The notes under the pieces were generated by a model that did no database searches, was not told the origin of the DNA, and saw only the letters and a program-made list of their open reading frames with translations. The position numbers and the translations under genes are program-made. From the NCBI GenBank assembly GCA_018674955.1, contig JABGZB010000140.1, positions 1 through 43,268 of the forward strand: a DNA stretch of 43,268 bases, given 5' to 3'. Each line of letters begins with the position of its first letter. The stretch's first letter is position 1. Shown in pieces: positions 626 to 36,870 of this stretch. This DNA is from Verrucomicrobiota bacterium. GTDB taxonomy: Bacteria; Verrucomicrobiota; Verrucomicrobiia; Limisphaerales; UBA1096.

Positions 626-1957
626 TCACTGTACCAGCATTACCCCCCCCATCAATCGCTTCAATTCGGAGACGATCTCTGGATGCTTTTCAGCGAGATT
701 CTTCGTTTCCCCGATGTCCGCCTCCAGGTCATAAAGTTCCTCAACCTCTTTCCGTTGTGTGTCGCGTGCATAGCCGTACACGTTGTGCTTGGCTTTTAGG
801 TATTTCCATTTGCCGCTCCGAATGCCGTTGTTGCGGTACACGAACGTCTTGCGGTTACCTCTTGGGTTTTTGCCAAGCAACAAATCTGTTTGATCAACCC
901 CATCGATCACCCGGTCATTGGGAACCTTGAAGCCGGCGAGATTGGCGAAGGTGGGCATGAAATCCAGCGTCGAAAAAATGGCATCGGACTCGGCACCAGC
1001 CTTCACCCGGCCCGGCCAACGGACGATGCAGGGAACGCGATAGCCAGCCTCATAACAGGAACCCTTCCCGTCCCGCAGCGGCCCAGCCTCGCCCCAGAAG
1101 ATCGACCCCTCCGGGTGGCCTTTCTTTTTGTTGGTGTAGGCGGGTTGATTCCACGGGCCGTTGTCGGATGTGTAAATCACCAGCGTGTTGTCGCGCAGGC
1201 CCTCCTTGTCCAAGACGTCAAGCAAACGGCCAGTCTCATAATCGAACTCCTCCACCACATCACCGTACAGACCTCCATTTGAATTCCCGCGAAAACGCGG
1301 TGAAGCGTCGATGATGGTATGCATCATTGTGTGCGCCACGTAGAGAATGAACGGCTTTCCCTTGTCGCGTTTGTTCTTGAGGAAATCAATAGCTTTGTTC
1401 GTGTAAAAGCGGGTGAGACTGGCCATGTCGCTCGTCTTGCCGGCAGCCTGGTTGTTCTCATGAAATGCCACTGTACCGCCGTCATTCGCCCCCAACGTAC
1501 CGAAGTAATAGTCAAAACCCTGTGCATTGGGCATCCGCGGGATGATCACCTTTCGGTTGGAGACATCCCACTTGCCGATACAGACCGTCTGGTAGTCCGC
1601 TTTTCGAATCAGCTCGGCGAAGGTGATCTCGCTCGCCGGCATCCCCCAACCCTTGCTGCGGAAGGGGTAACGCCCTGTCAACAGCGCCGAGCGCGACGGC
1701 CCGCAGACCGACTGCGCATAAAAACTGGTGAACCGGGTTCCCTCCTTGGCCAACCGATCCATGCGCGGTGTCTTATTCTTCTTGTTGCCGTAACAGCCCA
1801 TATCCGCATAGCCCTGGTCGTCGGTGAAAATGATGAGGATGTTCGGCCGCGCAGCATCGGCGTTGAGGGGAGAGACTGGGGCTAGGAAGGCAAGGACGCA
1901 CAAGATGACGAGAATCCTGCATTCTTTTATCCAGATACCTTGAGAGTTTGAGTTCAT
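626..1957 (-). CDS. Sulfatase (Cys-type formylglycine sulfatase family)
   Basis: 443-aa ORF with a signal peptide. Motifs: PNILIIFTDDQGYADMGCYG, CGPSRSALLTGRYP (CxPxR), TSDNGP, and C-terminal LYDLEADIGETKNLA typical of the family. It lies 13 nt upstream of the next minus-strand sulfatase. Confidence 0.93.
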   Translation of the reverse strand: MNSNSQGIWIKECRILVILCVLAFLAPVSPLNADAARPNILIIFTDDQGYADMGCYGNKKNKTPRMDRLAKEGTRFTSFYAQSVCGPSRSALLTGRYPFRSKGWGMPASEITFAELIRKADYQTVCIGKWDVSNRKVIIPRMPNAQGFDYYFGTLGANDGGTVAFHENNQAAGKTSDMASLTRFYTNKAIDFLKNKRDKGKPFILYVAHTMMHTIIDASPRFRGNSNGGLYGDVVEEFDYETGRLLDVLDKEGLRDNTLVIYTSDNGPWNQPAYTNKKKGHPEGSIFWGEAGPLRDGKGSCYEAGYRVPCIVRWPGRVKAGAESDAIFSTLDFMPTFANLAGFKVPNDRVIDGVDQTDLLLGKNPRGNRKTFVYRNNGIRSGKWKYLKAKHNVYGYARDTQRKEVEELYDLEADIGETKNLAEKHPEIVSELKRLMGGVMLVQ

Positions 1958-1974
1958 AGTTTTGAAATCACGTA

Positions 1975-3396
1975 TTAGCGACCGGGGAATTTTGGAACTC
2001 CGCCAAGGTAGGGAAACTTGTCGAAGTCGGGCCCCTTGCCAGTGACTCTAGGGTCATTCGTTTTTTTCAGTTCAGAAAAAAGATGCGCCTTTAATCTTTT
2101 CACGGTCTCAGCATAGGCAGAATCGGCGGCGATATTCACCAGTTGATCGGGATCTTTCTTTAGATCGTATAATTCAGTAGCGGGGCGTTTTCCAAACGCC
2201 AACTCATAGAGCCTGCGATGATGGGCGTCCTTATCCCGGCTCTCAACCATGTAGGTTTTAGTCGGACCATTGTCACAGTCGCTGAACCAAGCCCCCTTAA
2301 TCGCCGCCTTTTTATAATTGGGCGTACCCGCCGGCCAACGGTCAGGGCGAAAGTTGTGGAGATACAGAAAGTCGTGAGTCCGAATGGCTCGAGTCGGGTA
2401 GCCACCCATATCCTTCCCTTCCTGGCCTGGCACATGCCGTTCCTTGCCATGTAGCACATAGCTTCGATCGCTCTTGTCATTACCCGCGAGGAGCGACAAC
2501 AGGCTCCGACCGGAAACATCACTTGGAACATCCAAATCTGCAGCCTGGTAGAACGTCGGCGCCACATCGACAAGGCTTACGAAATCGTTTACCACCGTTC
2601 CCTCTTTCACCTTCGACGGCCAACGAATTGCAAGCGGCACTCGGGCTCCACTGTCATAGTTGTTGCTCTTGCAGCGAGGGAACGGCATGCCGTGATCGCC
2701 CGTCATGACGACGATGGTGTTGTCGAGTTCACCACTCTCCTCAAGCGCTTTAATGGCGTCCCCCACCAAGCTGTCGAAACGTTGCACTTCAAAATAATAA
2801 TCCGCAACGTCGCTGCGGACTTCATTGGAACCCGGGAAATGCGCAAATAATTTAATTTTTGAAAGATCCATCCCGCTTTTCATCCCCGAACCCTTTGCGT
2901 AGCCGCGGTGTGGATCGGAACTGCCAAGCCAGTAACAGAACGGCTTACCACTTTGCCTGATTTTCATAAAGGCGCGGAAGTTTTTGTAACGAGGTCCCGC
3001 TAGTTGACGGCCTTTCTTTTGGGTGCGGCCTGGCCCCCACCCTTTGCTGCTAACACCAGTCACGTAACCGGCCTTCGCCAATCGTTCGGGATATGTATCA
3101 TACTTGTCAGGAAACACACTCCAGAGATTACCCGCACCTTCAAGTCGCCAATGCCATTGACCCGTCAGTATGGCACCGCGCGACGGCGTGCAGGACGGCG
3201 ATGACACGTAGGCGTGATGAAACAGTGCCCCCTCCTTGGCCAAGCGATCGAAGGTCGGTGTCCTGACTACGGGATCGCCGTACGAACCGGCATGTGGCCA
3301 ACCCCAATCGTCAGCAATGGCAAAAAGGATGTTCGGCCGCTCAGCCGAATGCAGGGAACAGGCAAACAGAAAAATCAGTTGTGACAAGAATTTCAT
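1975..3396 (-). CDS. Sulfatase (Cys-type)
   Basis: 473-aa ORF with a signal peptide. Motifs: PNILFAIADDWGW, SCTPSRGAILTGQW, TGDHGMPFPRCK, ELYDLKKDPDQ. Confidence 0.92.
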   Translation of the reverse strand: MKFLSQLIFLFACSLHSAERPNILFAIADDWGWPHAGSYGDPVVRTPTFDRLAKEGALFHHAYVSSPSCTPSRGAILTGQWHWRLEGAGNLWSVFPDKYDTYPERLAKAGYVTGVSSKGWGPGRTQKKGRQLAGPRYKNFRAFMKIRQSGKPFCYWLGSSDPHRGYAKGSGMKSGMDLSKIKLFAHFPGSNEVRSDVADYYFEVQRFDSLVGDAIKALEESGELDNTIVVMTGDHGMPFPRCKSNNYDSGARVPLAIRWPSKVKEGTVVNDFVSLVDVAPTFYQAADLDVPSDVSGRSLLSLLAGNDKSDRSYVLHGKERHVPGQEGKDMGGYPTRAIRTHDFLYLHNFRPDRWPAGTPNYKKAAIKGAWFSDCDNGPTKTYMVESRDKDAHHRRLYELAFGKRPATELYDLKKDPDQLVNIAADSAYAETVKRLKAHLFSELKKTNDPRVTGKGPDFDKFPYLGGVPKFPGR

Positions 3397-3465
3397 GAGT
3401 GGCAGGCATTCTTCCCTCAGTCCCTTCGCTAAACCAGCACAAACCTTGGTTTCAGCGAAGAACCG

Positions 3466-4839
3466 TTACTTTGGCGAAACCTCCTTCACCCAGTCGCTGT
3501 GCAGGGTCCTGAGGCGCTGCACGATTTCCGGTTTGGCCTTGGCATATTCCTTTGCCTCAGGCTTGGCATCGACCAGGTTTCGCAGCGACACCTTGGTGTT
3601 CCCGTTCGAGCCGATCAGTTTCCAGTCACCCTCGCGAACAGCCCATTTTTTGCCCCAGGCGAAATGTAGAATTTTGTATTTCGACTTCGCCTTGGCGCTT
3701 CGGATCAACGGTAACACGCTATGGCCATCTAGCTTTGGAGCGTTAGAGGGTTGCTGGACACCACAGAGGTCTAGCACAGTGGGAAACCAGTCCATTGCCG
3801 TGATGATTTCCCCACGCACCTTCCCCTTTGGCAGCTTGGCCGGGTAACTGATGATGGCCGGCACGCGCACACCACCCTCGAGAAAGCTGCCCTTCTGCCC
3901 GATCCACTTACCAGTGGACCCACCGCCGCTCGCGCCATAAAAATGGCCCTTGGGATAACCGCTCCTATGATTTTCCACTCTGATTCGATTGCCGGTTTCC
4001 TCCGAGTGCCCGTTGTCGCTCATGAAGATGATAGCCGTATTTTCGCGCAGGTCCAGCGCCTCCAATTTGTCGACAATCTGGCCGATATAGTGATCGGTCG
4101 TGCTGACAATGGCCGCGTAGGAGCGCCGTGCCGGGGCAGCAATGTCCTTGTACCTCGTCTCAAACTGCTTGAGCGCCTGCTCCGGATAATGCGGAATGTT
4201 AAACGGCACATAGAGTAAGAAAGGCCGATCCTTGTTTTGCATAATGAATTTCAATGAACGCTGCACCATCAGCTCAGGAAAATATTTACCCGGCGCCTTC
4301 ACTGGTTTGATCCCGTCGTACAAATCATGAAATCCACTGCCATGCAGGAAATAGTGATTGTAGTTGTCAATGAAACCGTCGCGAATGCCAAAGAACTCGT
4401 CGAAGCCCTGTTTCTTTGGCCCAAAATCCCGATGGGCTCCAAGGTGCCATTTCCCGAAGAGCGCGGTTCGATAACCGGCAGTCTTCAGTGCCTCGCCCAG
4501 CGTCACCTCCTCAAGAGCCATGTTGATACCGTCCGGTCCATTCATGTCGCCCTGCGTCCAGTGATGGACTCCACCCCGCTGCGGATGCCGCCCCGTCATC
4601 AACGCCGCTCGCGCCGGGCAACACACCGTGTGCGCATACGCCTGAGTGAACCGCACTCCCGTGGCCGCAAGTCTGTCGATATTGGGCGTCCTGAGGTCGG
4701 TGGAGCCATAGCAATTGGCATCAATCGTCCCCTGGTCGTCGGTCAAAATGATGAGGATGTTCGGCCGCTCCACCGCCGACACACCAAGTGCGGAGAAGAC
4801 CAGCAGGAGGATAATAATGTGCTTCACGCCGAGAACCAT
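3466..4839 (-). CDS. Sulfatase (Cys-type)
   Basis: The ORF track gives 3466..4878. The internal Met at 4839 (MVLGVKHIIILLLVFSALGVSA) gives a proper signal peptide, so it is preferred as the start. Motifs: PNILIILTDDQG, CCPARAALMTGRHP, MSDNGH. Confidence 0.88.
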   Translation of the reverse strand: MVLGVKHIIILLLVFSALGVSAVERPNILIILTDDQGTIDANCYGSTDLRTPNIDRLAATGVRFTQAYAHTVCCPARAALMTGRHPQRGGVHHWTQGDMNGPDGINMALEEVTLGEALKTAGYRTALFGKWHLGAHRDFGPKKQGFDEFFGIRDGFIDNYNHYFLHGSGFHDLYDGIKPVKAPGKYFPELMVQRSLKFIMQNKDRPFLLYVPFNIPHYPEQALKQFETRYKDIAAPARRSYAAIVSTTDHYIGQIVDKLEALDLRENTAIIFMSDNGHSEETGNRIRVENHRSGYPKGHFYGASGGGSTGKWIGQKGSFLEGGVRVPAIISYPAKLPKGKVRGEIITAMDWFPTVLDLCGVQQPSNAPKLDGHSVLPLIRSAKAKSKYKILHFAWGKKWAVREGDWKLIGSNGNTKVSLRNLVDAKPEAKEYAKAKPEIVQRLRTLHSDWVKEVSPK

Positions 4840-4909
4840 TTCGCAGAGAGGTAACGCCGTCAACCCACCGCAATGCAAATATGCGCGGACAGCCTGGTCA
4901 AGCGCACCC

Positions 4910-7900
4910 TCAGCCAGGATTTACATTAAACACCCCGTACATGGTCCTCCAATGCCCTGGGAACGTGCAGACAAACTCGTATTTCCCGGGCTTGACTGGA
5001 ACGTTGAAGGTTAGCAGTTCACTCTCGCCCGGCTTCAGTAGGCGGGTTGCTTGGAGAACTTTTTTGGATTCCGGGACATACCCCTTTTCCCATGCGCGGG
5101 GTTGCGTCGCCATCTCGTCGGCGGCGCGTCCCACCTCTTCGCGTGAGCCAATTGTCACCAGGACCAGGTTATGGGGCATGGTGTCGTTGTTTTCAAAAAT
5201 CAACCGGATCGACTCGCCAGCCGTGACATGGATTTCCTCCCGGTCATATTTCATCCGGGCCGGCACGGTTCGAATGATATGCACCGGGGCGCCGTATTGC
5301 CGAAGCTCAGTGCGCAGTGTCTGCCCCAACTCCTCCGGCAACCGACTCGCCGCCGCTTGGCCAAGCGACAGGGCCTCGATGCCGGCTTGGCCAACGCGCC
5401 GGTCAACCGGCATATCTTCCAAGTAACTCAACAGGTCTTGAGCCAGGCCGTTCATCTGGTCGCTTGGCCAAGTTTCCGCCGGCATCCGGTAAAGAGCCGT
5501 GATTGCATCTTCCGGATTCTCACCACGTTGCAACTGCTTGGCCAGTTGTTGAAAGTTCGGGCCGGGTGCGGCGGCGGGCTCCGGCCTGCCAGAGAGAAAC
5601 CCAAGCGTCTGCGCCAGCGCGTGCTCAATGCCGGGATCCATCGGGTGCACTGCGGCCTCCATGGCAATGGCAAGCGCCTCGGGGGATGCACTGAAACTTG
5701 CGGCGATAACGGCGTGCAAACGGACACGCGGTTCAGGGTCGTTGACCATCTGTCGAATGAGTTCATCGGCTGAGCCGATCTGTTCCTGCCAATACCTGAG
5801 CACCTTGGTCGCTGCAGCCCGGGCGCTGGGATTCGCGCTTTTCAACTGCTGCTGCAGCAGAACTGCATCGACCTCGTTCAAACCTTGGCGAACCCAAAGC
5901 GCCTCTGTCCGGTGATGCTCCCGTTCGGGATCGGTCGCCTTCAGGTTTTTCAGCCATTCGTCGAGAGCCGGGATTACCTTACCTGCCGGTCGCTGCTGAA
6001 GTTCCCGCCGGGCGAACTCACGGGTGCTGCTCTCGTGCGATTTCAGGAGGTCCAAAAGTGCGTTTACGGGTTCGCCCTTGATCCGAGGATGTTTCAGGAG
6101 GGGCCGGTCAGAATGAGATATGCGCCAGATGCGCCCGCGCCGATGATCCCGGCCGGGGTGCCGTTTTGAAAAGTTCACGTTCTCAAAAATTTGGGTATAA
6201 AAGTCGGCGATGTAGAGGGCGCCATCAGGCCCCAAGGCCATGGCCACCGGTCGAAAAAGCGGATCGTCGCATCGCAGCAAATGTCCGTGAGATTCGACCT
6301 GATAGACGGACCCGTTAGTTTTCAGGGTGTACCAGGCGGTGCCAGTTTCCCCGACGCAATGATTGACGAGGAAGCGGCCCTGAACTCCGGGCGGAAAATG
6401 CGTGCTAAACAGAAGCTCGCAGCCCGATGCAATATGTCCGCCGGAGTTGAAGGCGAGGTGATTGGTCCGATGCTTGGTCTTGGGATAAGTGAAGTTCGAG
6501 GAAAATACATCCATCGGATAATACTGCCCGGCAGAGGCGTCGAGCATAATGCCACCTCCCCAGCGGTCGAACAGGTTGCCGAACGGGTTCCAAAAACTGT
6601 GCGACACGTAGACCCCGAACCGGTGTCGCTCCGGCCGGTAACGAAACACCGCCGCGTCACGTACGCATGCTAGCCCGTAAGGTGTCTCGATCTGTGTGTG
6701 GTAAAAAATGCCCTGCGTGAAATAGAGTGATCCGCCCGGACTCCACCTGAAATTGTTCATCGCGTGTTCGGCGTCCTCAGCACCAAAACCATGCAACAGC
6801 ACCCGAACCCAGTCTGACTGACCGTCGTTGTCTGTATCACGCGCCAACACAAGATTGGGCGCCTGAGCCAGAAGCACTCCACCCTCCCCGAAACCGAACC
6901 CATGCAGCAGGTTCAAGTGATCGAGAAAAACAGTGTGCCTGTCTGCCACGCCATCACCGTCCTGATCCTCGAGAATCACAATCGAGTCATCAGGCTGTTT
7001 CCCCGGCAGCGGATGAGGCCAGGTGGGTGTGTTGCCCACCCACAAACGACCGCTCGAATCAAACTGAAGCGCCATCGGGTTCGCAATGGGAAAGTCCACC
7101 TCGGAGGCAAACAGATTGACCTGATAGCCCGACGCCACCTTCATCATCGCCAACTCTGTTTCCGGGGACTTGGCACGCCCAGGCTTCCCATCCTCCTTCA
7201 CAGCCCAGAGCGACTCGGGTACGTCACCGGAAATCGACCGGGATGCGGGTGTGGGAAACCAGATTGGCTTCCCGTCCACTGGAATCTTTCGCCAGATATC
7301 AGCCACTCGCGGTTTCTGCGTCTCCCAGATTTGACGCTCCATGTCCTCGACCAATTGACGGGATTGTTTGCGCTCGCTGCCGAGATGCTTTGATCCAGGG
7401 GTTTGGTTTCGTCGTCCATGAATATAAGAGGCATTCGGGGCGTGCCACCACAGTTGATGCCAATAGTTTTTCTCGTAAACCAGCCGCCGAAAGGCATCGG
7501 CTTCGGATGGATCGCCCTTGGCCTGCGATGCCGTCAAACCTTCCAGCAGGCCAAGTTGCTTTGCCATCATTCGGCTCACGACCTGGTAGCCGGATTCAGT
7601 GAGATGAATGCCGTTGAAGGTCAACCTGCCGCCCTGCCTCGATACCCGCTGTGCTGTTGCCGAAAACAAATCCACGGCGTGCACACCCGGTTGATTTGCG
7701 ACTTGGAGCAGTTCCTCCGAATAAACCTTCAAGTCGCCGTTTCGATCCGGAACATCCACCGTTGCCGACGAGTTCTCCTGGGCGATGGGAGTAACCAGCA
7801 CCACTCGGGGCGGAGAGTGCCCATTAAACTTTTCGCCTCGGAGTTGCTCCACAAAACTCTCGGTCTTGTGTCGGAAGTGCCCCACCTCTGCAATGCCATG

Positions 7901-8236
7901 AAACGATTCATTCATCCCGTAACAGACAAACACAATGTCAGCACGTTCCTCGCGCAACTCATCAGCCAGGCGAGGAAACCCCAATGGGCGAATCGACTCC
8001 CCCACCTCTTCCGCCGGCCAAGCCAGATACCGAATCCGCAGGCGGTGTTCCGGGAATCGGCTTTGCAGAAACGTCTCGAAATACCCGAAGAGATGCATCC
8101 TCTCGGCGAACGTGTTGCCGACGATCACAATGTGGTCGTTCTCCTTTATCTTTAGGTCGCCGGCCCGCGCTGCTGAAACAACCCACAGCAGAATAATTGC
8201 ACTGCAAACAAAAACAAAACGCATTTTAAAATTCAT
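4910..8236 (-). CDS. Secreted multidomain protein: SGNH-like domain + 'membrane-bound dehydrogenase'-type beta-propeller + HEAT repeats + C-terminal azurin-like cupredoxin
   Basis: 1108-aa ORF with signal peptide MNFKMRFVFVCSAIILLWVVSAARA. The N-terminal SGNH-like blocks are HIVIVGNTFAERM, YGMNES and NGIHLTESG. The propeller region (LWVGNTPTWPH, ILEDQDGDGVADR, DTDNDGQSD, FRWSPGGSLYF) resembles the Pirellula/Verrucomicrobium 'putative membrane-bound dehydrogenase' domain; that match is from memory of TIGR02604-type annotations. HEAT-like helices are present (DPEPRVRLHAVIAAS). The last ~126 aa (4913..5290) carry type-1 copper ligands, MPHN ... YEFVCTFPGHWRTMYG, with the same C-x4-H-x3-M spacing as azurin. 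The Cys codon is at 4967..4969. Confidence 0.8.
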   Translation of the reverse strand: MNFKMRFVFVCSAIILLWVVSAARAGDLKIKENDHIVIVGNTFAERMHLFGYFETFLQSRFPEHRLRIRYLAWPAEEVGESIRPLGFPRLADELREERADIVFVCYGMNESFHGIAEVGHFRHKTESFVEQLRGEKFNGHSPPRVVLVTPIAQENSSATVDVPDRNGDLKVYSEELLQVANQPGVHAVDLFSATAQRVSRQGGRLTFNGIHLTESGYQVVSRMMAKQLGLLEGLTASQAKGDPSEADAFRRLVYEKNYWHQLWWHAPNASYIHGRRNQTPGSKHLGSERKQSRQLVEDMERQIWETQKPRVADIWRKIPVDGKPIWFPTPASRSISGDVPESLWAVKEDGKPGRAKSPETELAMMKVASGYQVNLFASEVDFPIANPMALQFDSSGRLWVGNTPTWPHPLPGKQPDDSIVILEDQDGDGVADRHTVFLDHLNLLHGFGFGEGGVLLAQAPNLVLARDTDNDGQSDWVRVLLHGFGAEDAEHAMNNFRWSPGGSLYFTQGIFYHTQIETPYGLACVRDAAVFRYRPERHRFGVYVSHSFWNPFGNLFDRWGGGIMLDASAGQYYPMDVFSSNFTYPKTKHRTNHLAFNSGGHIASGCELLFSTHFPPGVQGRFLVNHCVGETGTAWYTLKTNGSVYQVESHGHLLRCDDPLFRPVAMALGPDGALYIADFYTQIFENVNFSKRHPGRDHRRGRIWRISHSDRPLLKHPRIKGEPVNALLDLLKSHESSTREFARRELQQRPAGKVIPALDEWLKNLKATDPEREHHRTEALWVRQGLNEVDAVLLQQQLKSANPSARAAATKVLRYWQEQIGSADELIRQMVNDPEPRVRLHAVIAASFSASPEALAIAMEAAVHPMDPGIEHALAQTLGFLSGRPEPAAAPGPNFQQLAKQLQRGENPEDAITALYRMPAETWPSDQMNGLAQDLLSYLEDMPVDRRVGQAGIEALSLGQAAASRLPEELGQTLRTELRQYGAPVHIIRTVPARMKYDREEIHVTAGESIRLIFENNDTMPHNLVLVTIGSREEVGRAADEMATQPRAWEKGYVPESKKVLQATRLLKPGESELLTFNVPVKPGKYEFVCTFPGHWRTMYGVFNVNPG

Positions 8237-8264
8237 CCGGCTATTGACCCCTCACTGCCGAGCG

Positions 8265-9851: not shown

Positions 9852-10232
9852 AATTTTGAGTGCTAAAAAGACAAGCTAAGCAGGGTGCCGCAGGAATTCA
9901 ACACGACATCGGTAAATTATACGACCTGAAAAATAACATCGCCGAACCCCAGACGATCGGCATCGTGGGAACTCAGCCCAACGATTCAATGCAGGATTCG
10001 TTTCTGCACGAAGTGTTCCACACCGTGCACAATCCCGTTACCAGACGACGAACGTAGTTCTCATCGCTCTCAATTTCCCTCAGTTGCATCACATGACTCC
10101 GGCGGTCAGCTTCTCTGGCTCGTATGCTTTCGGTTCAACCATCAATCTTTATTTTGTAAGGCTGCAGGCATTTTGCGGCAACAGTTAAAACGCCTTGTAA
10201 ACTGCGTTCAACGGAGTGACAAATCCCTCTCT

Positions 10233-10298
10233 ATGAAATCAATTCTACTCACAATCGCAGCCGTGTTGCTGGTGGGGTGTGGCGAGGCTTTAAACTAA
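10233..10298 (+). pseudogene. 21-codon lipoprotein signal-peptide micro-ORF, probably the 5' relic of a disrupted lipoprotein gene
   Basis: ATG at 10233 reads MKSILLTIAAVLLVGCGEALN then TAA at 10296..10298. This is a complete lipobox signal (LVGC) with no mature protein behind it. It ends 7 nt before the GTG start of the next gene, which is in a different frame. Confidence 0.4.
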
Positions 10299-10305
10299 GC
10301 CCAAA

Positions 10306-10995: not shown

Positions 10996-11019
10996 CTGTG
11001 CTTACAGGCTGTGTCTCTA

Positions 11020-28208: not shown

Positions 28209-28874
28209 ATGGAAGTCACAGAAGCAATTCGAAACCGTAAATCCGCCCGGGCGTTTCTCGATAAGGCGGTTCCGGACGAGGTCGTCACCGAGATATTGGA
28301 ATGCGCCCGGTGGGCACCGTCTGGAGCCAACACCCAGCCGTGGTATGTGGCTGTGCTTACCGGCGAAACCAAGCGGCGACTCGGCGACGCCATGGCCAAG
28401 CGGCGTACCAGCGGCGAAAAACCCCGCCCGGATTACAATTACTACCCGACGAAAAGCGAGGAGCCGTACATCTCACGCAAACACGCCTGCGCCCACGCCC
28501 TCTACTCCGCGCTGGGAATCGAGCGCAAAGACATAGAGCAGCGCAAGATGCAGTGGATAAAGAATTACCACCACTTCGGCGCGCCAGTTGCCCTGCTTTT
28601 TTTCATCGATACGATTCTCGAGAAAGGCTCGTGGGTGGACACCGGGATGTTCGTCCAAAACGTCATGCTCGCCGCTCGCGGCCATGGACTCGAGACCTGC
28701 CCGCAAGCCGCCCTCGCCGAGTACCCCGATGTCGCCCGGGATCTGCTGAACATTCCCAAAAGCAAAAAACTTATTTGCGGCGTGGCGCTTGGCTATGCGG
28801 ACTACGACGATCCGTCATACCAATACCGCACCGACCGCGAGCCAGTCGAGAGCTTCACCCAATGGTATCGCTAA
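28209..28874 (+). CDS. Nitroreductase family protein (FMN-dependent, cytoplasmic type)
   Basis: 221-aa ORF with no signal peptide. The N-terminus AIRNRKSARAFLDKAVPDEVVTEILECARWAPSGANTQPWYVAVL is the classic nitroreductase-fold N-terminal signature. Confidence 0.85.
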   Translation: MEVTEAIRNRKSARAFLDKAVPDEVVTEILECARWAPSGANTQPWYVAVLTGETKRRLGDAMAKRRTSGEKPRPDYNYYPTKSEEPYISRKHACAHALYSALGIERKDIEQRKMQWIKNYHHFGAPVALLFFIDTILEKGSWVDTGMFVQNVMLAARGHGLETCPQAALAEYPDVARDLLNIPKSKKLICGVALGYADYDDPSYQYRTDREPVESFTQWYR

Positions 28875-31861
28875 AAAGAGTTGTCCCGATTGCATCCGCT
28901 TGGTCGTTGTTCACCGTGCTACAACCGGCTAGCCTTGGGCAAAATTCCCTGTCTGTCTCCACGCCCGAGGCCGACAACTCAGTGAAAGCTGAACTGGCTT
29001 CGTTTGCGGTGGACAAGGAGTTACAGGTCAACTTATTCGCCGATGAATCGATGGGCATAGCCAATCCCGTTTGCATGCGGTGGGACGCGCGCGGGCGGTT
29101 GTGGGTGCTGTGCACGTGGGCGTATCCTCAGCTCAAACCGGGCGTAAAGCCGAATGACAAGCTACTCATTCTCGAAGACACCAACGGCGACGCGAAGGCG
29201 GATGAAGTTTTCACCTACACCGATGGACTCAATATGCCCACCGGGTTTGCGCTCGGCCATGGCGGCGCGTACATCGGCAACGGGCGCGAGTTGCTGCACG
29301 TGCGCGATACGACCGGCGACGGCAAAGCGGACAAACGCGTAGTGCTTTTCAGCGGCTTTGGGACGGGCGACACTCATCAAACAATCAACTCCTTCGCGTG
29401 GAGTCCCGGCGGCGAATTGTTTTTCAGCCAAGGGCTGCACTGCTTCTCGCGTGTGCAAACGCCGTGGGGCATTCGCAAGCTGGACGAGCACGGCTCATGG
29501 CGACTGCGACCGCTGCGCCGCCAACTGCACGCGCACCGGCGCACCTCCGGTGGCGGCAATCCGTGGGGGTTTGCGTTTGGGGATTGGGGCGAGCCGTTTA
29601 TTAAAAGCAACGGCCCGGGCGTCAGCGAACTGCTGCCGGGGATGGTGGCCAGCGAACAAATCGTGGGCGATTACTGGGGCGGTGCGGTGCAAATTGGCGC
29701 CACGAAAATTAAATCGATGATTATCGAAATTGTCGACACGCCGGTGTTGCCCAAGGATTTTCAGGGAGACTTCTTGATTGCCGGTTATTTTGCGCGCAAC
29801 ATCGCCCGGCTCCGCCCCACCGTGAACGGCGCAGGCCACAAGCTGCAAACGCTAGCGCCCGTTCTCACTTCCACCCACAACGCCTTTCGCCCCGTGGACC
29901 TCAACACCGGCCCGGATGGTGCGCTGTACGTTGCCGACTGGTTTAACCCCATCATCGGCCATTACCAAGCCTCGCTGCGACATCCGGATCGCGACAAAAA
30001 GCACGGCCGCATTTGGCGCATCACGACCAAGGGCCAGCCGCTGCTCAAGCCGCCGGCGTTGGACAAAATGAATGCCGCGCAATTATGTAATCAACTTTCC
30101 GCGCCCCTGCGTCGCACGCGCAAACTGGCCAAGCTGCGCCTGATGGATTTGCCGAAGGCCAAGGCCATAGCCGCCACGCAACAATGGGTCGACGCGCTGA
30201 AGCCCACCGACCCCGCGCTCGAAACCAAACTATTCGAAGCCATCGGCGTGTTTGAATCGCACGAAGTGGTGGACCGCCCCTTGCTCGAGCGCTTGCTCAC
30301 CTCGAAGGATTACCGTGCGCGCGCTTATGCCACGCGAGTGGTTGGGCGCTGGCACGACCGTTTAAAAAATCCGCTTGCACTTTTGCGCCGCAGCGCGACC
30401 GATGAACATTCGCGCGTGCGACTGGAAGCAATCGTGGCCGCGAGCGATGTGCGTGAGGCGGAATCCATCGCCATCGCCGCGCAAGCCGCCGATGGCTCGG
30501 CGGATCGCTTTATCACCTTCGCCTTCAAAAACGCCGTCCACGCCCTCGCCAGCGAATGGAAGCCCGCGTTATTGGCGGGCAAACTGGATTTTGCCAAACC
30601 GGCGCATCTGTTAAGCGTCGTGCGCGAAGGCGGCGGCAACGAAGTCGCCAGCGTGGTGCGCAAAAAACTGGCCGACCCCGCGCTGTCCACTGCTCACAAA
30701 CTTATTCTCGCGGAATTGCTCGCCCAGATCGGCAACAGCGCCGATGCCGCGCTGGCGCTGGAGTTGGCTTCAATCCATCCAACCATCCTGCACGCGTTGG
30801 TGAACGCCGCCCGCGAACGCAATTTGCAAGCACCCGCCAATGCGGCGGAATTACTCAGCGTGCCATTGAAGACTACCGCGACACGCGCCGGAGCGGTCCA
30901 ATTAATTGGCGCGTGGAAACTTAACGCGCATGCGGAGTCCATCCGCGCGTTGGCCACCGGCCAAACGGAACCGCTCGCCGTGCGGGTGGCCGCTGCAGTG
31001 GCGTTGGGGCAGTTGAAAATCCCGCAGGCGCTGGAAACGCTGGCGTCGTTGGTGACGGTGAATGGCGCAGCGGATTTGCGCGTGGCGGCCTTGGGCAGTT
31101 TGGCCAAGCACGACGTGGCTCGCGCGGCGCAATTGACGGCGCGGCTGTCAGGCCAAGTGAAGCCGGATGAATTGGGGCCGGTCTTGGCCGCGTTGTTGCA
31201 ACGCAACGCCGGCGCGGATGCGATGGCTCGCGCGCTTGGCCAAGCGGAGGTTTCGGCGGATACCGCGAAGTTGATACTGCGCTGGCTCAACGCGGCAGGG
31301 CGAGCAGAGCCAAAGTTAAACTTAGTTTTAAATAAACTCATCGGCGTGCAATCGGTCACACCGGTTTACAGTGCGGACTTTGTGGGAGCGTTGGTCAAGG
31401 AAGCACTGGCGAAGGGTGATGCGGTGAATGGCAAAAAGGTTTTCCAACTGCCGCTGGCCAGTTGCACGGCGTGCCACGCGGTGGACGGCGTGCGCGGTGC
31501 GGTGACTTCGGTGAAAGGCCCGAACCTCTCGGCAGTGGCGGCGGGGTTGCCGATGGATCTTTTGGTGGAAAGCGTGCTGTGGCCCGCACGGCAAATCAAG
31601 GAAGGTTACGACGCCACCACGGTGATCACGAAAGACGGCCGCGTGCTGAGCGGCTTCGCCCACAGCGAAGACAAAACCGTTCTTCGCGTGCGCGACCTGG
31701 CCACCGGCAAAATCGCACCCGTTCAAACCGCCAACATCAAGCAACGCACCCGCAACGGCACCGTGATGCCTCCGGGCCTTACCGCCAGCCTCACACGCGC
31801 TGAACTGCGCGATCTCATTAAATATTTATCCACCCTGAAAACCACCGGCGAACTGAAGTGA
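28862..31861 (+). CDS. Secreted 'membrane-bound dehydrogenase'-type beta-propeller + HEAT repeats + C-terminal c-type cytochrome (CxxCH)
   Basis: The track ORF starts at 28301, but that part overlaps the nitroreductase out of frame. ATG at 28862 gives the signal peptide MVSLKRVVPIASAWSLFTVLQPASLG. The propeller region (LWVLCTWAYPQ, ILEDTNGDAKADE, DTTGDGKADK, FAWSPGGELFF) is paralogous to the 4910..8236 protein. HEAT-like repeats are present (DEHSRVRLEAIVAAS). The heme motif CTACH is at 31463..31477. Confidence 0.82.
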   Translation: MVSLKRVVPIASAWSLFTVLQPASLGQNSLSVSTPEADNSVKAELASFAVDKELQVNLFADESMGIANPVCMRWDARGRLWVLCTWAYPQLKPGVKPNDKLLILEDTNGDAKADEVFTYTDGLNMPTGFALGHGGAYIGNGRELLHVRDTTGDGKADKRVVLFSGFGTGDTHQTINSFAWSPGGELFFSQGLHCFSRVQTPWGIRKLDEHGSWRLRPLRRQLHAHRRTSGGGNPWGFAFGDWGEPFIKSNGPGVSELLPGMVASEQIVGDYWGGAVQIGATKIKSMIIEIVDTPVLPKDFQGDFLIAGYFARNIARLRPTVNGAGHKLQTLAPVLTSTHNAFRPVDLNTGPDGALYVADWFNPIIGHYQASLRHPDRDKKHGRIWRITTKGQPLLKPPALDKMNAAQLCNQLSAPLRRTRKLAKLRLMDLPKAKAIAATQQWVDALKPTDPALETKLFEAIGVFESHEVVDRPLLERLLTSKDYRARAYATRVVGRWHDRLKNPLALLRRSATDEHSRVRLEAIVAASDVREAESIAIAAQAADGSADRFITFAFKNAVHALASEWKPALLAGKLDFAKPAHLLSVVREGGGNEVASVVRKKLADPALSTAHKLILAELLAQIGNSADAALALELASIHPTILHALVNAARERNLQAPANAAELLSVPLKTTATRAGAVQLIGAWKLNAHAESIRALATGQTEPLAVRVAAAVALGQLKIPQALETLASLVTVNGAADLRVAALGSLAKHDVARAAQLTARLSGQVKPDELGPVLAALLQRNAGADAMARALGQAEVSADTAKLILRWLNAAGRAEPKLNLVLNKLIGVQSVTPVYSADFVGALVKEALAKGDAVNGKKVFQLPLASCTACHAVDGVRGAVTSVKGPNLSAVAAGLPMDLLVESVLWPARQIKEGYDATTVITKDGRVLSGFAHSEDKTVLRVRDLATGKIAPVQTANIKQRTRNGTVMPPGLTASLTRAELRDLIKYLSTLKTTGELK

Positions 31862-33083: not shown

Positions 33084-34634
33084 ATGTTCAGAAAACTATT
33101 AATCACATGGGCCGTCAGTATCTCGATGCTCTTCACGGCCGGTCTCGCGTTCGCAGGAGAAGGAACTGGCACTCCGAACATCCTCGTGATTCTGGCCGAT
33201 GATTTGGGTTACGGCGACGTCGGTTGCTACAACCCGGAATCCAAAGTGCCCACACCGAATTTGGATCGCTTGGCCAAGGATGGGATGCGCTTTACCGACG
33301 CGCACAGTCCGTCGACGGTGTGCACGCCCACGCGTTACAGCCTGCTCACGGGACGGATGGCGTTTCGTACGGGGATGCGCGGTGTTTTCACCGGTGCGGG
33401 CGGCCCATGCATGATTGAGAAAGGACGCCTATCAATTGGCGGCATGCTGAAAAACCAAGGCTACACCACCGCGCTCTTCGGTAAATGGCACGTGGGCATG
33501 ACCTTCTTTGACAAGGAGGGCACACCCATCAACCAAAATGGCCTACCCGCAGTGAAACGAATCGATTACAGCCGGGCCATTCCCGATGCACCTATCCACC
33601 GAGGCTTCGATTATTTCTTCGGGACCGTGTGCTGTCCCACCACCGACTGGCTCTACGCCTTTGTTGATGGAGATCGTATACCCGTGCCTCCCACTCACAT
33701 TGTCGATCGCACGCCACTCCCGAAGCATCCTTACTCAAACGACAACCGCCCGGGCATGATTGCGCCGGGCTTTGATCTGGAGGAAGTGGACATGGTTTTC
33801 CTCGAGCGGAGCCTGAAGTTTCTGGATAACCACGCCAAGCAATCGCCCAAGAAACCGTTCTTTCTCTTTCACTCCATGCAGGCTGTGCATCTGCCCTCAT
33901 TCCCCGGCGATGCCTTCAAGGGCAAAACCAAGGCGGGACCACACGGCGATTTTATTTTCGAAATGGACTTTGTAGTGGGTGAACTCATGAAGTCGCTTAA
34001 AAAACATGGTATGGCAGACAACACACTGGTCATCTTCACGAGTGACAACGGCCCTGAAGTGCCAACCTCCATTTCCATGCGGCATGATCACAACCACAAC
34101 GGTGCCCGCCCATGGCGTGGCGTAAAGCGCGATCAGTGGGAAGGCGGTCACCGCGTTCCTTTTATCGCCCGTTGGCCCGGCAAGATCAAACCCGACAGCA
34201 CGTCTGACCAGACTATTTGCCTCACGGACATCATGGCCACAGCCGCCGCAATCACCGGCGCGAAAATTCCCAATAACACCGCCGAAGACAGCTACAATAT
34301 TTTATCCGCGCTTCTTGGCAAAGACACCAAACCCATTCGTAACTATACCTTGCACCAAACTATCAGCCTCGCCATGGCCATTCGGCGCGGCCAATGGAAG
34401 TACCTCGATCACAAAGGCTCCGGCGGCAACAACTATGGCCGCGAAGGCAGATGGGGCATGAAACAATACGCATTACCCGAGAAATCTCCGAACGCTCCCG
34501 GCCAATTGTATGATCTGGCAAATGATCCGGGCGAAACCACCAATCTTTACTTCAAGTATCCCGAGATTGTTAGGGAACTAAAAGAGAAGCTGAATGAGTT
34601 CAAAAAAAACGGTCGCAGCGCTCCAAAACGATGA
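33084..34634 (+). CDS. Sulfatase (Cys-type)
   Basis: 516-aa ORF that starts 1 nt after the preceding stop, with a signal peptide. Motifs: PNILVILADDLGYGDVGCYN, TVCTPTRYSLLTGRMAFR, TSDNGP, WEGGHRVPFIARWPG. Confidence 0.93.
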   Translation: MFRKLLITWAVSISMLFTAGLAFAGEGTGTPNILVILADDLGYGDVGCYNPESKVPTPNLDRLAKDGMRFTDAHSPSTVCTPTRYSLLTGRMAFRTGMRGVFTGAGGPCMIEKGRLSIGGMLKNQGYTTALFGKWHVGMTFFDKEGTPINQNGLPAVKRIDYSRAIPDAPIHRGFDYFFGTVCCPTTDWLYAFVDGDRIPVPPTHIVDRTPLPKHPYSNDNRPGMIAPGFDLEEVDMVFLERSLKFLDNHAKQSPKKPFFLFHSMQAVHLPSFPGDAFKGKTKAGPHGDFIFEMDFVVGELMKSLKKHGMADNTLVIFTSDNGPEVPTSISMRHDHNHNGARPWRGVKRDQWEGGHRVPFIARWPGKIKPDSTSDQTICLTDIMATAAAITGAKIPNNTAEDSYNILSALLGKDTKPIRNYTLHQTISLAMAIRRGQWKYLDHKGSGGNNYGREGRWGMKQYALPEKSPNAPGQLYDLANDPGETTNLYFKYPEIVRELKEKLNEFKKNGRSAPKR

Positions 34635-34656
34635 TTGTTGCTTCAAGTTTTTGACC

Positions 34657-36870
34657 ATGGCAAAAATGAAAAAACGATTCACCCACACCCTCTGTTTATT
34701 TGCTCTCGCAACTTCCTCCACGGGACAAGCCACAACGCCGCGTGTGGATGACACATTTTTCACCGGCAATGACCTAAATGATTGGTCGACTTCGCAGCCG
34801 AAATATTGGTCGGTGAAAGGTGGTATGATTGTCGGGCACTCGGCGGCAAAGGTGCCGAAGAATGAATTCCTTTGGTCGGACGTGACGGTGAAGGATTTTT
34901 ATTTATCGGTGGACGTGAAGCTCACACCGGACAACCGCAATGCGGGCATTCAGTTTCGCTCGAAGAAGGTGGATGCCGACGGGCAGGCGCTTGGTTATCA
35001 GGCCGATGTGGGCGCGGGCGTATGGGGCAAACTCTACCACGAACACGGACGCGGCAAATTGGACTGGAACGATCGGGCCGCCAAGGCCGTTAAACGAGAT
35101 GACTGGAACCGCTACGAAATACTGGCGGTCGGGCACAAGATTTGGACGGCCATCAACGGCACCCTGTGCGTCGCGTTAGAAGATCCCAAAGGCGAGTTGT
35201 CCGGAAAAATAGCTTTCCAGGTTCATTCCGGTCCGCCGCAAACCGTGCATTACCGCCCGGTAAAACTCGTCCACGACCCCAAGCTCGAACTGGCCGGCCT
35301 AAACAAAAAGCAACTACTCGAGGCGTTAGCAAAAAAGGTAGTCAAAGAAGGCAAACCGCAGCCCAAACCGGGCTGGACTCCACAAGTGACCGCGTGGCGC
35401 GCGAAGCTTGATTCCAACGATCCCGGCATGATTGGCAAATGGTTCGCGACCGTGTTTGACGATACCAAGTGGAAGACGATGAAGCTTCCGGCTTTCTACG
35501 AGACCGAGGGACTGCCTGGTCACGACGGCACTGTGTGGTTTCGGCGGGATGTTGAGATTCCCGACGCGCACGCCGGAAAACCGCGCACGCTCGAACTTGG
35601 GGCGATTGATGACATGGACATGACCTGGTTCAATGGCATACAGGTCGGCGGCATCGAGGATCCAGGCTACTGGACTGCGCCCCGTAAATACACTGTGCCT
35701 GGAAAACTCGTGAAAACCGGTCGCAACGTCATCACGGTGCGGGTCATCGATCATGGCTGGAGCGGTGGAATGAACGGACCGGCGGCTAGCATGAAATTGA
35801 CGAAACAGGGGGAGAAACCCATCGCCTTGACTGGCGAGTGGCGGTATAGCCCGGGCATCACGCTGAAAGCGCTCGGGCTCGGGGCACTAGCCAATCCCAC
35901 GCCATCCAGTCCGAAACCGCCTCTACCACCCGCTCCAGCATTGATCCGGCCCTTGGCCAAGCCGGCCAAGCCGTTTCCGGGGTTCCGTAACGGATTCGAA
36001 ATCGACGGCGACGCCAACATTGTGATCGTCGGCTCTACCAACGCCGCCGAGAGTCAGCGGTACGGCTATCTCGAGACGCTGCTGACTGCTGGCAATCCTA
36101 CTCAGCGCCTGGCTATTCGTAATATGGCTTGGCCAGCTGACACGGTTTACCGACAGCAACGGCCGCGTAATTTTTTTGGAATCGTCAAACCAAGCTACGG
36201 CGAGGCGGATCGCCGCAAACCACTCCCCGCGAACATCGTGTTTCTCTGGCTTGGCCAAGCGGAGTCACTCGATGGCGACGCCAAGCTGAACGACTTCGCA
36301 AGAGCATACGAGCAAACCATCGAGCAACTTACCAGCCGAACCAGCCGCTTGGTTTTGCTCACGCCGGTGCCGTTTGCTGATCCGCTTGGCCTTAGCTTTG
36401 ATGTTGAAGGTCGTAACGCCCATCTCCAGCAATATGCCGCCGCCATCCGTCGGCTTGGCCAAGCGCGCAAATTGCCGGTTGTCGATCTCACCACAGCCCT
36501 GCTTGGCCAAACGGCCACGCGCGACGGTGTCACGCTTTCGCAAAACGGCCAATGGCTCGCCGCAAAAACCATCGCCACGCAACTTGGCCTGAATTCCAGT
36601 ATCAGCATTGCGCCGACCGGCGAACTGTTTCCGGTTCCCGCCGAGGAATTGCGGCAGGCTGTCCTTCAAAAAAACAGGTTGTGGCAGCAGTTCTGGCTGC
36701 CGACCAATTGGGCCTTCCTCTACGGCAACCGTCAACAAACCGCCAGCAGCCGCGACCACCGTGACGCCGGCTTCCGTTGGTTCCCCGAGGAGGTGCAGTC
36801 CATTGTTCCGCAACTGGAACAGATGGACAGTCTGATTCAGGCAAAAGCCCGGCAGGTCATCCGGAAATAA
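34657..36870 (+). CDS. Secreted fusion: DUF1080 (3-keto-disaccharide hydrolase-type) + sialate-O-acetylesterase-type beta-sandwich + SGNH-like domain
   Basis: Met at 34657 (MAKMKKRFTHTLCLFALATSSTGQA) is preferred over the track start 34594, which overlaps the previous gene. DUF1080-like blocks are NDLNDWS, NAGIQFRS, GYQADVG, WNRYEILAVGHKIWTAINGT and IAFQVHSG. The middle region KWKTMKLPAFYETEGLPGHDGTVWFRRDVEIP...LELGAIDDMDMTWFNGIQVGG...GRNVITVRVIDHG matches the beta-sandwich seen in sialate O-acetylesterases. The C-terminal region IVIVGSTNAAESQRYGYLETLL is paralogous to the N-terminal domain of the 4910..8236 protein. Confidence 0.75.
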   Translation: MAKMKKRFTHTLCLFALATSSTGQATTPRVDDTFFTGNDLNDWSTSQPKYWSVKGGMIVGHSAAKVPKNEFLWSDVTVKDFYLSVDVKLTPDNRNAGIQFRSKKVDADGQALGYQADVGAGVWGKLYHEHGRGKLDWNDRAAKAVKRDDWNRYEILAVGHKIWTAINGTLCVALEDPKGELSGKIAFQVHSGPPQTVHYRPVKLVHDPKLELAGLNKKQLLEALAKKVVKEGKPQPKPGWTPQVTAWRAKLDSNDPGMIGKWFATVFDDTKWKTMKLPAFYETEGLPGHDGTVWFRRDVEIPDAHAGKPRTLELGAIDDMDMTWFNGIQVGGIEDPGYWTAPRKYTVPGKLVKTGRNVITVRVIDHGWSGGMNGPAASMKLTKQGEKPIALTGEWRYSPGITLKALGLGALANPTPSSPKPPLPPAPALIRPLAKPAKPFPGFRNGFEIDGDANIVIVGSTNAAESQRYGYLETLLTAGNPTQRLAIRNMAWPADTVYRQQRPRNFFGIVKPSYGEADRRKPLPANIVFLWLGQAESLDGDAKLNDFARAYEQTIEQLTSRTSRLVLLTPVPFADPLGLSFDVEGRNAHLQQYAAAIRRLGQARKLPVVDLTTALLGQTATRDGVTLSQNGQWLAAKTIATQLGLNSSISIAPTGELFPVPAEELRQAVLQKNRLWQQFWLPTNWAFLYGNRQQTASSRDHRDAGFRWFPEEVQSIVPQLEQMDSLIQAKARQVIRK

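Follow-up and report, generated by a model that had tools for sequence, protein, structure and literature searches.

Why should an eight-nucleotide palindrome, TTGGCCAA, occur 24 times in 43,268 nucleotides of DNA from a Verrucomicrobiota bacterium? The stretch in question, hereafter the window, is contig JABGZB010000140.1 of assembly GCA_018674955.1 (positions 1 to 43,268). In cyanobacteria, a highly iterated palindrome (HIP) known as HIP1 (GCGATCGC) was reportedly described by Robinson et al. in 1995. An original prediction, made from the letters of the window, proposed that TTGGCCAA is maintained by a HIP1-like process that acts on the DNA word itself. We consider it likely that TTGGCCAA belongs to the HIP class and recurs as a DNA word throughout the genomes of a marine, uncultured lineage of Verrucomicrobiota.

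How unusual is this abundance? All 24 exact copies, the first at 1746 and the last at 36503, were found precisely where they had been predicted, and the 0.64 copies expected from base composition (independent, identically distributed letters) agree with the 0.6-0.7 that had been estimated. Dinucleotide-preserving shuffles of the window gave a mean of 1.43 copies and a maximum of 6. The density is thus 555 copies per Mb, with an observed-to-expected ratio (O/E) of 37 by base composition and 17 by the shuffles. The longer palindrome GCTTGGCCAAGC, a 12-mer claimed to be perfect at five sites, is so at 5355, 27020, 31234, 36249 and 36453, and the many 11-of-12 matches claimed with it are reflected in 17 sites at no more than one mismatch, where 0.15 are expected. 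Enrichment grows gradually outwards from a TGGCCA core, which is itself present 53 times against about 12 expected; TTGGCCAA accounts for 24 of these 53 and for 24 of the 31 copies of TTGGCCA. The maximal-order Markov comparison that had been suggested gives 20.5 expected against 24 observed, but the sub-words on which it is built mostly are TTGGCCAA itself. We therefore rejected this statistic as uninformative.

Could the word be dictated by proteins and their codons? A conserved sulfatase motif, DRLAK, written in the favoured codons TTG, GCC and AAG, would produce it, and 5-6 of the 24 window copies fit this explanation. Five encode RLAK(E/R/G/D)G (1746, 3236, 22344, 24850 and 33270), the same number that the original prediction had attributed to the motif, and one encodes RLANSG (27466); TTG, GCC, GGC, AAG and CAA are, moreover, common codons in the window. 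Against this, synonymous-codon shuffles of the window genes (taken as the longest open reading frames, ORFs), which keep the proteins and the codon usage of each gene, yielded 3.9 +/- 1.9 copies of TTGGCCAA, with a maximum of 10 in 500 shuffles, where 21 are observed in genes. The same shuffles gave 0.25 copies of GCTTGGCCAAGC against 5, and shuffling whole codons gave 1.7 copies of TTGGCCAA. A codon-aware null had been named beforehand as the check that could overturn the idea, and the enrichment survives it. The peptides themselves are in excess: LAK occurs 25 times against 6.2 expected, LGQ 12 against 3.6 and LGQA 6 against 0.3, and LAK is spelled with TTGGCCAA in 12 of the 25 cases where codon usage predicts 9%. 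It follows from this excess and from the biased spelling that the peptides are a consequence of the DNA word and not its cause. Within the window, 13 copies are read as L-A-K/N, seven as L/V-G-Q and one as W-P, while three are intergenic (12004, 13708 and 20529); each frame and intergenic position listed in the prediction was correct on recheck.

Is the word peculiar to this window? We searched for the 14-mer CGCTTGGCCAAGCG in one genome per bacterial or archaeal species, taking 8-kb stretches (at least 120 loci), and for the tandem 20-mer TTGGCCAAGCGCTTGGCCAA in metagenomes (at least 120 contigs, whose accessions, where they can be recognised, are marine or of Tara type). Seed copies were removed from all density and conservation statistics, the species count is a lower bound, and taxonomic labels are the depositors' own. 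Among the 120 genome loci listed, TTGGCCAA content is sharply bimodal. Fifty-six are word-rich, with 0.5-1.75 copies per kb (about 1 per kb), and represent at least about 19 species-level marine metagenome-assembled genomes (MAGs) labelled Verrucomicrobia, Verrucomicrobiales or Verrucomicrobiae; one word-rich MAG (JAKUOU01) is labelled 'Pedosphaera sp. ... Pedosphaerales-3', and two word-rich loci (L043 and L071) bear other labels. Word-rich MAGs include NZFR01 (MED711), NYYJ01 (ARS81), DKGH01 (UBA6775), JACNJE01 (NIOZ-UU28) and JASLKI01. Pooled, the word-rich loci hold 348 copies in 346 kb, or 0.735 per kb without seeds, an O/E of 76. The other 64 listed loci, nearly all from other phyla, hold 0.047 non-seed copies per kb, with the seed copy alone in Proteobacteria, Actinomycetota, Acidobacteriota, most Planctomycetota and other phyla. 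The metagenome contigs listed resemble the word-rich class, with 905 copies in 841 kb (0.77 per kb without seeds, O/E 80). In both the word-rich MAG loci and the metagenome contigs, the commonest 8-mer is TTGGCCAA with its overlapping words.

Loci picked by protein homology carry no bias towards the word and tell how far it extends. Relatives at 79-93% amino-acid identity carry 0.19-0.51 copies per kb and a Limisphaerales MAG at 56% carries 0.15, while loci at 51% hold no copy in 23.5 kb and one at 49% ('Rhodopirellula sp.') holds none in 15 kb. Density falls with protein divergence to zero: the word is a lineage-wide trait, at background level in other phyla and in distant relatives. Judged by the labels of its homologues and by the word that it shares, the organism from which the window derives very probably belongs to this word-rich, uncultured marine lineage of Verrucomicrobiota.

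Two contigs that carry the word stand apart from the rest. L043 (CALHIR010000050.1, 1-3032), labelled Candidatus Poseidoniaceae archaeon, has five copies, or 1.65 per kb, and is probably a mis-binned verrucomicrobial contig. L197 (IMGVR_UViG_3300032087_002358, 1-13670) is phage-like, with genes for a terminase large subunit (3800-5416) and a DnaB helicase (8213-9646), and holds eight copies of TTGGCCAA in 13.7 kb, a host-like density, which makes it a candidate for a virus or prophage of the lineage that bears the word. The other 119 listed viral loci with the same 14-mer mostly have the seed or one extra copy, and seven hold 3-4.

Do the copies in relatives behave as those in the window do? 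Genes in the fetched loci were called heuristically, as the longest stop-to-stop ORFs. The MAG loci have 164 copies in the L-A-K/N frame, 112 in L-G-Q (mostly LGQA), 29 in A-W-P-S and 43 outside ORFs; the corresponding frames in the metagenome contigs stand at 304:225:52, with 70 copies outside ORFs. Density is higher outside ORFs than inside, at 1.76 versus 0.95 per kb in the MAG loci and 1.28 versus 0.74 per kb in the metagenome contigs. Synonymous shuffling of the MAG loci leaves 36.6 +/- 5.2 copies where 312 are observed. At least one copy is present in 152 of the 240 ORFs of at least 150 amino acids in the MAG loci, and the 138 word-bearing ORFs that were scanned matched 186 Pfam families; only four are sulfatases. 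The enrichment is not confined to the LAK motif of sulfatase paralogues, a reservation attached to the original prediction: the copies spread over 186 families, three frames and intergenic DNA. Codon null, frames, Pfam breadth and LAK spelling together refute the derivation of the word from protein sequence and codon usage, to which we assign a negligible probability. The word has instead visibly shifted the proteome of the lineage towards LAK and LGQA. One ORF resembling a sugar kinase (L315, 4113-5036, minus strand) contains the peptide RLAK four times.

What is the unit that is being repeated? TTGGCCAA is its own reverse complement, a perfect palindrome with symmetric extensions. In non-seed copies the octamer is preceded by C and followed by G in 79% of cases, positions -2 to -4 weakly favour G, C and S, and no sequence information was found beyond 4 nt on either side. 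Each frame class, and intergenic DNA as well, shows this C...G preference in 75-100% of copies. The real unit is a 10-bp palindrome, CTTGGCCAAG, that grades into CGCTTGGCCAAGCG. Since the flanking information ends at +/-4 nt, the word is not a fragment of a longer repeat. Many copies of one identical short sequence could also be left by a dispersed mobile element of the repetitive extragenic palindromic (REP) or miniature inverted-repeat transposable element (MITE) type, or by an assembly or adapter artefact. Yet REP and MITE elements need at least 20 nt and are mainly intergenic, whereas this unit spans 10-14 nt and 88-93% of its copies lie in frame inside ORFs, which they do not disrupt; orthologous positions are, in addition, kept in independent assemblies from different studies. 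The flank limit, the in-frame copies and the conservation across assemblies refute mobile repeat and artefact alike, and their chance of being correct is vanishingly small. A protein motif, a codon-usage effect and a mobile repeat are all excluded as the nature of TTGGCCAA.

The arrangement of the copies raises another option, that together they form an array to which an abundant protein, nucleoid-associated or chromosome-organising, binds as a dimer that recognises the 10-14 bp palindrome. The symmetric consensus, graded over 10-14 bp, would suit such a protein, as would copies that are conserved and dispersed genome-wide. There is also mild local clustering: 57 spacings are shorter than 100 bp where 35 are expected, and seven pairs form exact 12-nt tandem dimers, (GC)TTGGCCAAGCGCTTGGCCAA. 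Such dimers lie in L022 (5025), L040 (7436), L076 (2515), L081 (2211), L082 (4958) and L119 (3442), and the window has a one-and-a-half-unit version at 12004-12019. Close pairs are mostly direct 12-nt tandems inside ORFs, not inverted pairs, and the palindrome formed at the junction, AAGCGCTT, is the second most over-represented palindromic 8-mer of the word-rich loci (O/E 9.2). On the other side, the clustering is partly inflated by seeded sampling and no known protein is a candidate. We regard this explanation as improbable.

Are individual sites maintained? The gene at 34594-36870 (plus strand), which encodes a 758-amino-acid DUF1080/GDSL protein, has four copies; the metagenome relative L124 (87% identical) keeps all of them, L122 keeps two and L121 keeps one. 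The copy at 35953-35960 (L-A-K frame, PLAKPA) is present in all three relatives. That at 36251-36258 (L-G-Q, WLGQAE; a perfect 12-mer) is kept in L124 and L122 and reads GCTTGGCCAGGC in L121. The copies at 36455-36462 (L-G-Q, RLGQAR; again a perfect 12-mer) and 36503-36510 (L-G-Q, LLGQTA) are kept in L124; the former is TTAGCCAA in L122 and TTAACCAA in L121, and the latter is TTAGCCAA in both. In the neighbouring sulfatase gene (33084-34634, plus strand), the copy at 33270-33277 (L-A-K, RLAKDG) is kept at the orthologous position of L122, within a 92% identical segment. Because the non-conserved sites of L121 and L122 carry variants that differ by 1-2 nt (TTGGCCAG, TTAGCCAA or TTAACCAA), copies come and go by point substitution.

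The same holds on a larger scale. In 61 non-overlapping alignments (147 kb) among word-rich contigs, non-seed copies were followed in both directions and compared with all 8-mers and with words one letter removed from TTGGCCAA. At 72-80% identity the word is conserved in 46% of cases, all 8-mers in 14.5% and one-off words in 25%; at 80-88% identity the figures are 60%, 32.7% and 30%, and at 88-96% identity 79%, 57.7% and 60%. Conservation of sites in related genomes, which the original prediction had put forward as a test, is therefore above background in all three bins. Silent positions give a finer measure. When TTG, GCC, GGC, CAA and CCA codons whose amino acid is unchanged between orthologues were compared, 119 of 133 (89.5%) inside the word were identical against 3649 of 4934 (74.0%) elsewhere (odds ratio 3.0, Fisher p = 1.8e-5). 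This excess implies that, at the level of DNA, silent positions within the word are either under constraint or keep being restored.

These properties recall HIP1. Like HIP1 and the alternate cyanobacterial HIPs, TTGGCCAA is a perfect palindromic octamer with symmetric extensions that is not part of a longer repeat. Both occur at hundreds to about 1000 copies per Mb with O/E values from tens to about 80 (735-770 per Mb and 76-80 in our lineage samples), in all frames and between genes, and lineage-wide. Published figures for HIP1 run from roughly 300 to 2700 copies per Mb with an O/E of about 55-228 by base composition (Elhai 2015 Table 2, PMC4390886), a range that the O/E of the window falls somewhat under. 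HIP1 sites are evolutionarily conserved above background (Xu et al. 2018, PMC5861425), and its one-off variants are likewise commonest at the outermost positions (Elhai, PMC4390886). Conservation beyond neutral expectation, an excess of outermost variants and scarcity in compositionally atypical genes are shared by the two words. They differ in their core, which is TGGCCA/GGCC (a restriction-type sequence) in TTGGCCAA and CGATCG/GATC in HIP1, in GC content (50% against 75%) and in their hosts, uncultured marine genomes of Verrucomicrobiota only on the one hand and cyanobacteria on the other. HIP1 itself is not notably enriched in the word-rich MAG loci (O/E 2.4, against 76 for TTGGCCAA). HIP1 also has cognate methyltransferases (DmtA and DmtC); none was identified for TTGGCCAA in the DNA sampled. 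Palindromic, hyper-abundant, dispersed over frames, in excess of codon nulls, conserved site by site and restricted to a lineage, TTGGCCAA shows these traits of the HIP class. A second phylum therefore carries a HIP of its own, distinct from HIP1. The proposal of a DNA-level, HIP1-like process is upheld by the codon null, the three frames, the denser non-coding copies with the same flanks, the lineage-wide rank as commonest 8-mer and the silent-site conservation. The analogy with Chi that accompanied it does not fit, as a palindrome cannot be polar; Chi, KOPS and AIMS are strand-skewed non-palindromic words, whereas TTGGCCAA reads the same on both strands. In the searchable literature we found no description of TTGGCCAA as an iterated palindrome, nor of any iterated palindrome in connection with Verrucomicrobia, and the literature on HIP that was found deals with cyanobacteria only.

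What process could raise a word to this frequency? Very-short-patch (VSP) repair over-represents the words that it favours, CCWGG in Escherichia coli being an example. By analogy, TTGGCCAA might be the functionless by-product of a sequence-specific repair bias, coupled to cytosine methylation of GGCC or TGGCCA, that would turn near-matches into the word and restore mutated copies. In both cases a short restriction-type palindrome is enriched and not avoided, and a model of this type has been advanced for HIP1 by Elhai (PMC4390886). In the word-rich MAG loci all 12 one-off variant classes are over-represented, 1.6- to 8.7-fold, the highest being CTGGCCAA/TTGGCCAG at the outermost positions (O/E 8.7). 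Between orthologues, 8-14% of one-off words face a full copy, which denotes frequent interconversion by single substitutions, and density correlates with GC content, as a conversion-like process predicts. However, the deamination products TTGGTCAA/TTGACCAA show no special deficit (O/E 2.5, like other variants), so that a simple VSP drive is not evident. VSP effects in E. coli are, as is generally known, far weaker than an 80-fold enrichment, more than one order of magnitude apart in effect size, and no Vsr or m5C (5-methylcytosine) methyltransferase was seen in the DNA sampled, a sample too small to decide the matter. We hold a pure repair by-product to be unlikely.

Does the word mark the DNA that has been longest in the genome? 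The original prediction noted its absence from the low-GC end of the window, and indeed there is no TTGGCCAA past 36510; at the upstream density, the last 6.4 kb (GC about 0.46) would hold about 4.2 copies (Poisson P ~0.016). This tail (36871-43268, GC 0.45-0.47) comprises genes at 37152-41324, 41498-42229 and 42576-43235, all on the minus strand, and GC at third codon positions is 0.41 in its gene for a 1390-amino-acid LamG/F5-8C/Ig protein. In the window as a whole, genes with a GC of at least 0.54 hold 0.78 copies per kb (19 copies) and lower-GC genes 0.13 (2 copies), and in the MAG loci density climbs from 0.25 to 0.96 per kb across GC classes. Because TTGGCCAA is itself 50% GC, composition by itself does not account for this trend; a build-up of copies with time of residence would fit, as would a connection with a GC-favouring conversion process. 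The tail is kept at 87% identity in L124 (3711-7874), where it also lacks TTGGCCAA, and is therefore neither an assembly chimera nor a very recent insertion. It is a stable, compositionally foreign block. The suggestion that the word separates native from acquired DNA thus holds in that low-GC genes are poor in it, but the word-free tail is not a very recent arrival.

Such a pattern also bears on DNA uptake, an analogy that had been drawn from the start. If a competence receptor preferred CTTGGCCAAG, uptake followed by recombination could drive the word to about 1 per kb, a form of molecular drive; this explanation overlaps with the HIP-class assignment. The uptake signal sequences (USS) of Pasteurellaceae and the DNA uptake sequences (DUS) of Neisseriaceae likewise occur about once per kb, lie in genes in tolerated frames, originate by point mutation, are common to related species and have a graded, extended consensus (PMC1939737). 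The 0.55-0.77 per kb of TTGGCCAA lies within the generally known range of uptake sequences; its consensus is graded beyond the core, it occupies frames with tolerated peptides and is commoner in non-coding DNA, its copies originate by point mutation and low-GC genes are depleted. Two preprints tie HIP1 to natural transformation, one reporting that methylated HIP1 improves it (bioRxiv 10.1101/2024.09.10.611283) and the other linking the two (bioRxiv 10.64898/2026.06.24.733823). Density, tolerated frames and point-mutation origin thus fit the analogy. Symmetry does not: USS and DUS are asymmetric, have a demonstrated uptake bias and often form inverted-pair terminators, whereas TTGGCCAA is a perfect palindrome, for which occurrence in both orientations is trivial. 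Nor does an uptake-only model predict the host-like density of the phage-like L197, which recombination with the host or residence as a prophage could explain. An uptake signal is a possible explanation, though in our judgement a doubtful one.

Returning to a palindrome of the HIP class, how might it work? New copies originate at near-matching sites through point substitution and settle where the peptide tolerates them, in L-A-K, then L-G-Q-A, then A-W-P-S; they are densest where coding constraint is absent, and an existing copy is preserved more faithfully than its surroundings, silent positions included. Our tentative proposal, drawn largely from the analogy with HIP1, is that the symmetric 10-14 bp site is recognised by a homodimeric protein specific to the lineage, the likeliest candidate being a cytosine methyltransferase for the TGGCCA/GGCC core. 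In HIP1, the inner CGATCG and GATC have methyltransferases that co-occur with that word (PMC4390886). The mark on TGGCCA/GGCC would be read by the repair, recombination or DNA-uptake machinery, and the word would serve as a 'self' tag whose high frequency results from selection or from drive. DNA that has resided longer in the lineage, with higher GC and native codon usage, would gain more copies than low-GC genes. With similar reserve, the whole may be pictured as an independently evolved HIP system in which a 10-14 bp CTTGGCCAAG 'self' tag, served by a lineage-specific methyltransferase and uptake or repair machinery, has reshaped the proteome and is shared with at least one phage.

Several points weigh against this picture or against the strength of the evidence for it, beginning with the lack of a deamination-product deficit noted above. 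The loci were seeded with extended forms of the word, and clustering could slightly inflate densities despite seed removal; the ORF calls in fetched loci are, as stated, heuristic; and the conservation of sites could partly reflect ongoing biased conversion rather than selection. By Pfam, no methyltransferase, restriction or Vsr-type gene is present among the window genes. When M.HhaI, Dam, CcrM and Vsr were compared by tblastn with word-rich DNA totalling about 1.2 Mb, there was no match where about 0.3 would be expected by chance sampling, and for that reason the result is uninformative rather than negative. In a marine single-molecule real-time (SMRT) methylome, no motif or methyltransferase was found for five Verrucomicrobia MAGs, and a TGGCCA m5C motif was detected in one MAG (PMC8919816); since SMRT is weak for m5C, these data neither support nor exclude a methylation model. 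The recognised site, graded over 10-14 bp, also exceeds that of a typical type II methyltransferase. Some enzyme candidates were considered and rejected. L315 gave a weak Vsr match (E = 0.02), but on the strand opposite to a long ORF that resembles a membrane protein and within its span. Two m5C-methyltransferase-like matches lie in the viral loci L225 and L241, neither of which is among the loci with at least three copies of the word.

How are the remaining copies distributed along the window? By Pfam, the window is a polysaccharide-utilisation island of the Planctomycetes-Verrucomicrobia-Chlamydiae (PVC) type, with 14 sulfatases, two DUF7133/HEAT proteins, a DUF1552 protein plus PSCyt/PSD pair, the DUF1080/GDSL protein, a large LamG/F5-8C/Ig protein and a DUF1559 pilin-like protein. 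Two sulfatase genes on the minus strand each encode RLAKEG in the L-A-K frame, at 1746-1753 (gene 626-1957) and at 3236-3243 (gene 1975-3396; an 11-of-12 match to GCTTGGCCAAGC). Three copies follow in a DUF7133/HEAT/cupredoxin gene (4910-8236, minus strand): one in the L-G-Q frame at 5357-5364 (SLGQAA), perfect as a 12-mer and as the 14-mer CGCTTGGCCAAGCG; one as V-G-Q at 5387-5394 (RVGQAG), 30 nt from it; and the W-P copy at 5464-5471 (ETWPSD), an 11-of-12 match. A further 11-of-12 match, at 8392-8399 (L-A-K, DLAKRE), is in the sulfatase gene 8265-9851 (minus strand).

Next come two intergenic copies. That at 12004-12011 lies between 11894 and 12106 and has a half-site directly after it (TTGGCCAAGCGCTTGG), and that at 13708-13715, an 11-of-12 match, separates the convergent genes 12106-13563 (plus) and 13719-15149 (minus). 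The PSCyt/PSD gene 15146-17413 (minus strand) has one copy at 17330-17337 (L-G-Q, VLGQAV), matching the 12-mer at 11 of 12 positions. The third intergenic copy, at 20529-20536, is 4 nt past the stop of the sulfatase gene 19125-20525 (plus strand) and upstream of the likely ATG of the next sulfatase, at about 20584. L-A-K copies then recur at 22344-22351 (RLAKRG) in the sulfatase gene 22152-23594 (plus) and four times in the sulfatase gene 23619-25016 (minus), at 23629-23636 (ALAKRG), 23770-23777 (NLAKAN), 24046-24053 (DLAKAK, with the half-site GCGCTTGGCC just before it) and 24850-24857 (RLAKGG). The sulfatase gene 26625-28112 (minus strand) holds a perfect 12-mer at 27022-27029 (L-A-K, GLAKPG) and the L-A-N copy at 27466-27473 (RLANSG). 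A DUF7133/cytochrome c gene (28301-31861, plus strand) carries an L-A-K copy at 31100-31107 (SLAKHD) and an L-G-Q copy at 31236-31243 (ALGQAE) that is perfect as both 12-mer and 14-mer.

Other features of the window were recorded as well. Two 32-nt copies of a segment with one degenerate difference, GGTAAGACGGGTG[C/A]AGAATTGAAAGCTGAAGG, lie at 11959-11990 and 13626-13657, where 0 are expected by chance; each follows closely on the 3' side of a gene stop, with an intergenic TTGGCCAA 14-51 nt downstream of it. One reading frame gives ...RKH(S/G)GKTG(A/E)ELKAEG(K/R)*, and this frame is open at 13542-13664 across the end of a sulfatase gene. We take the peptide to resemble a C-terminal tail that many repeat proteins from marine PVC bacteria have. 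The homologue of the 758-amino-acid protein is about 1180 amino acids long in L121, L122, L123 and L124, with an extra N-terminal sulfatase domain, and the window lacks about 1.4 kb at that domain, adjoining the upstream sulfatase gene 33084-34634. A deletion between paralogous sulfatase sequences is one candidate cause.

The best named homologue of this protein is in a Verrucomicrobiota MAG (82% identity), and others are labelled Limisphaerales, Opitutae or Planctomycetota. At nucleotide level, two marine metagenome contigs match the left end of the window at 96%, L317 (Ga0257112_10001352) over positions 1-545 and L323 over 1-275, and L317 also matches positions 649-3671 at 85% identity; Joint Genome Institute (JGI) marine metagenomes therefore contain close relatives of the source organism. 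Comparison of the window with the MAG loci by blastn and tblastx revealed paralogous sulfatase similarity only, so that none of those MAG fragments is the origin of the window, and an Rfam scan of the window found no RNA family.

What does a second word of this class mean? For 30 years HIP1 has been regarded as a cyanobacterial hallmark, and work that connects its function with methylation and transformation is only now appearing. A HIP-class word of unrelated sequence in another phylum, comparable in abundance, frame independence and silent-site conservation, shows convergence. If an independent HIP system does exist here, genome tagging would be a convergent strategy and not a cyanobacterial peculiarity, and these bacteria would offer a second natural system for testing what HIP1 does. 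The word also allows comparative tests of the enzymes that co-occur with such words. It is a strong taxonomic signature, of use in binning, in recognising mis-binned contigs such as L043 and in assigning hosts to phages such as L197, and it can flag recently acquired genes in these genomes. Finally, it measurably biases protein composition in ecologically important marine polysaccharide degraders.

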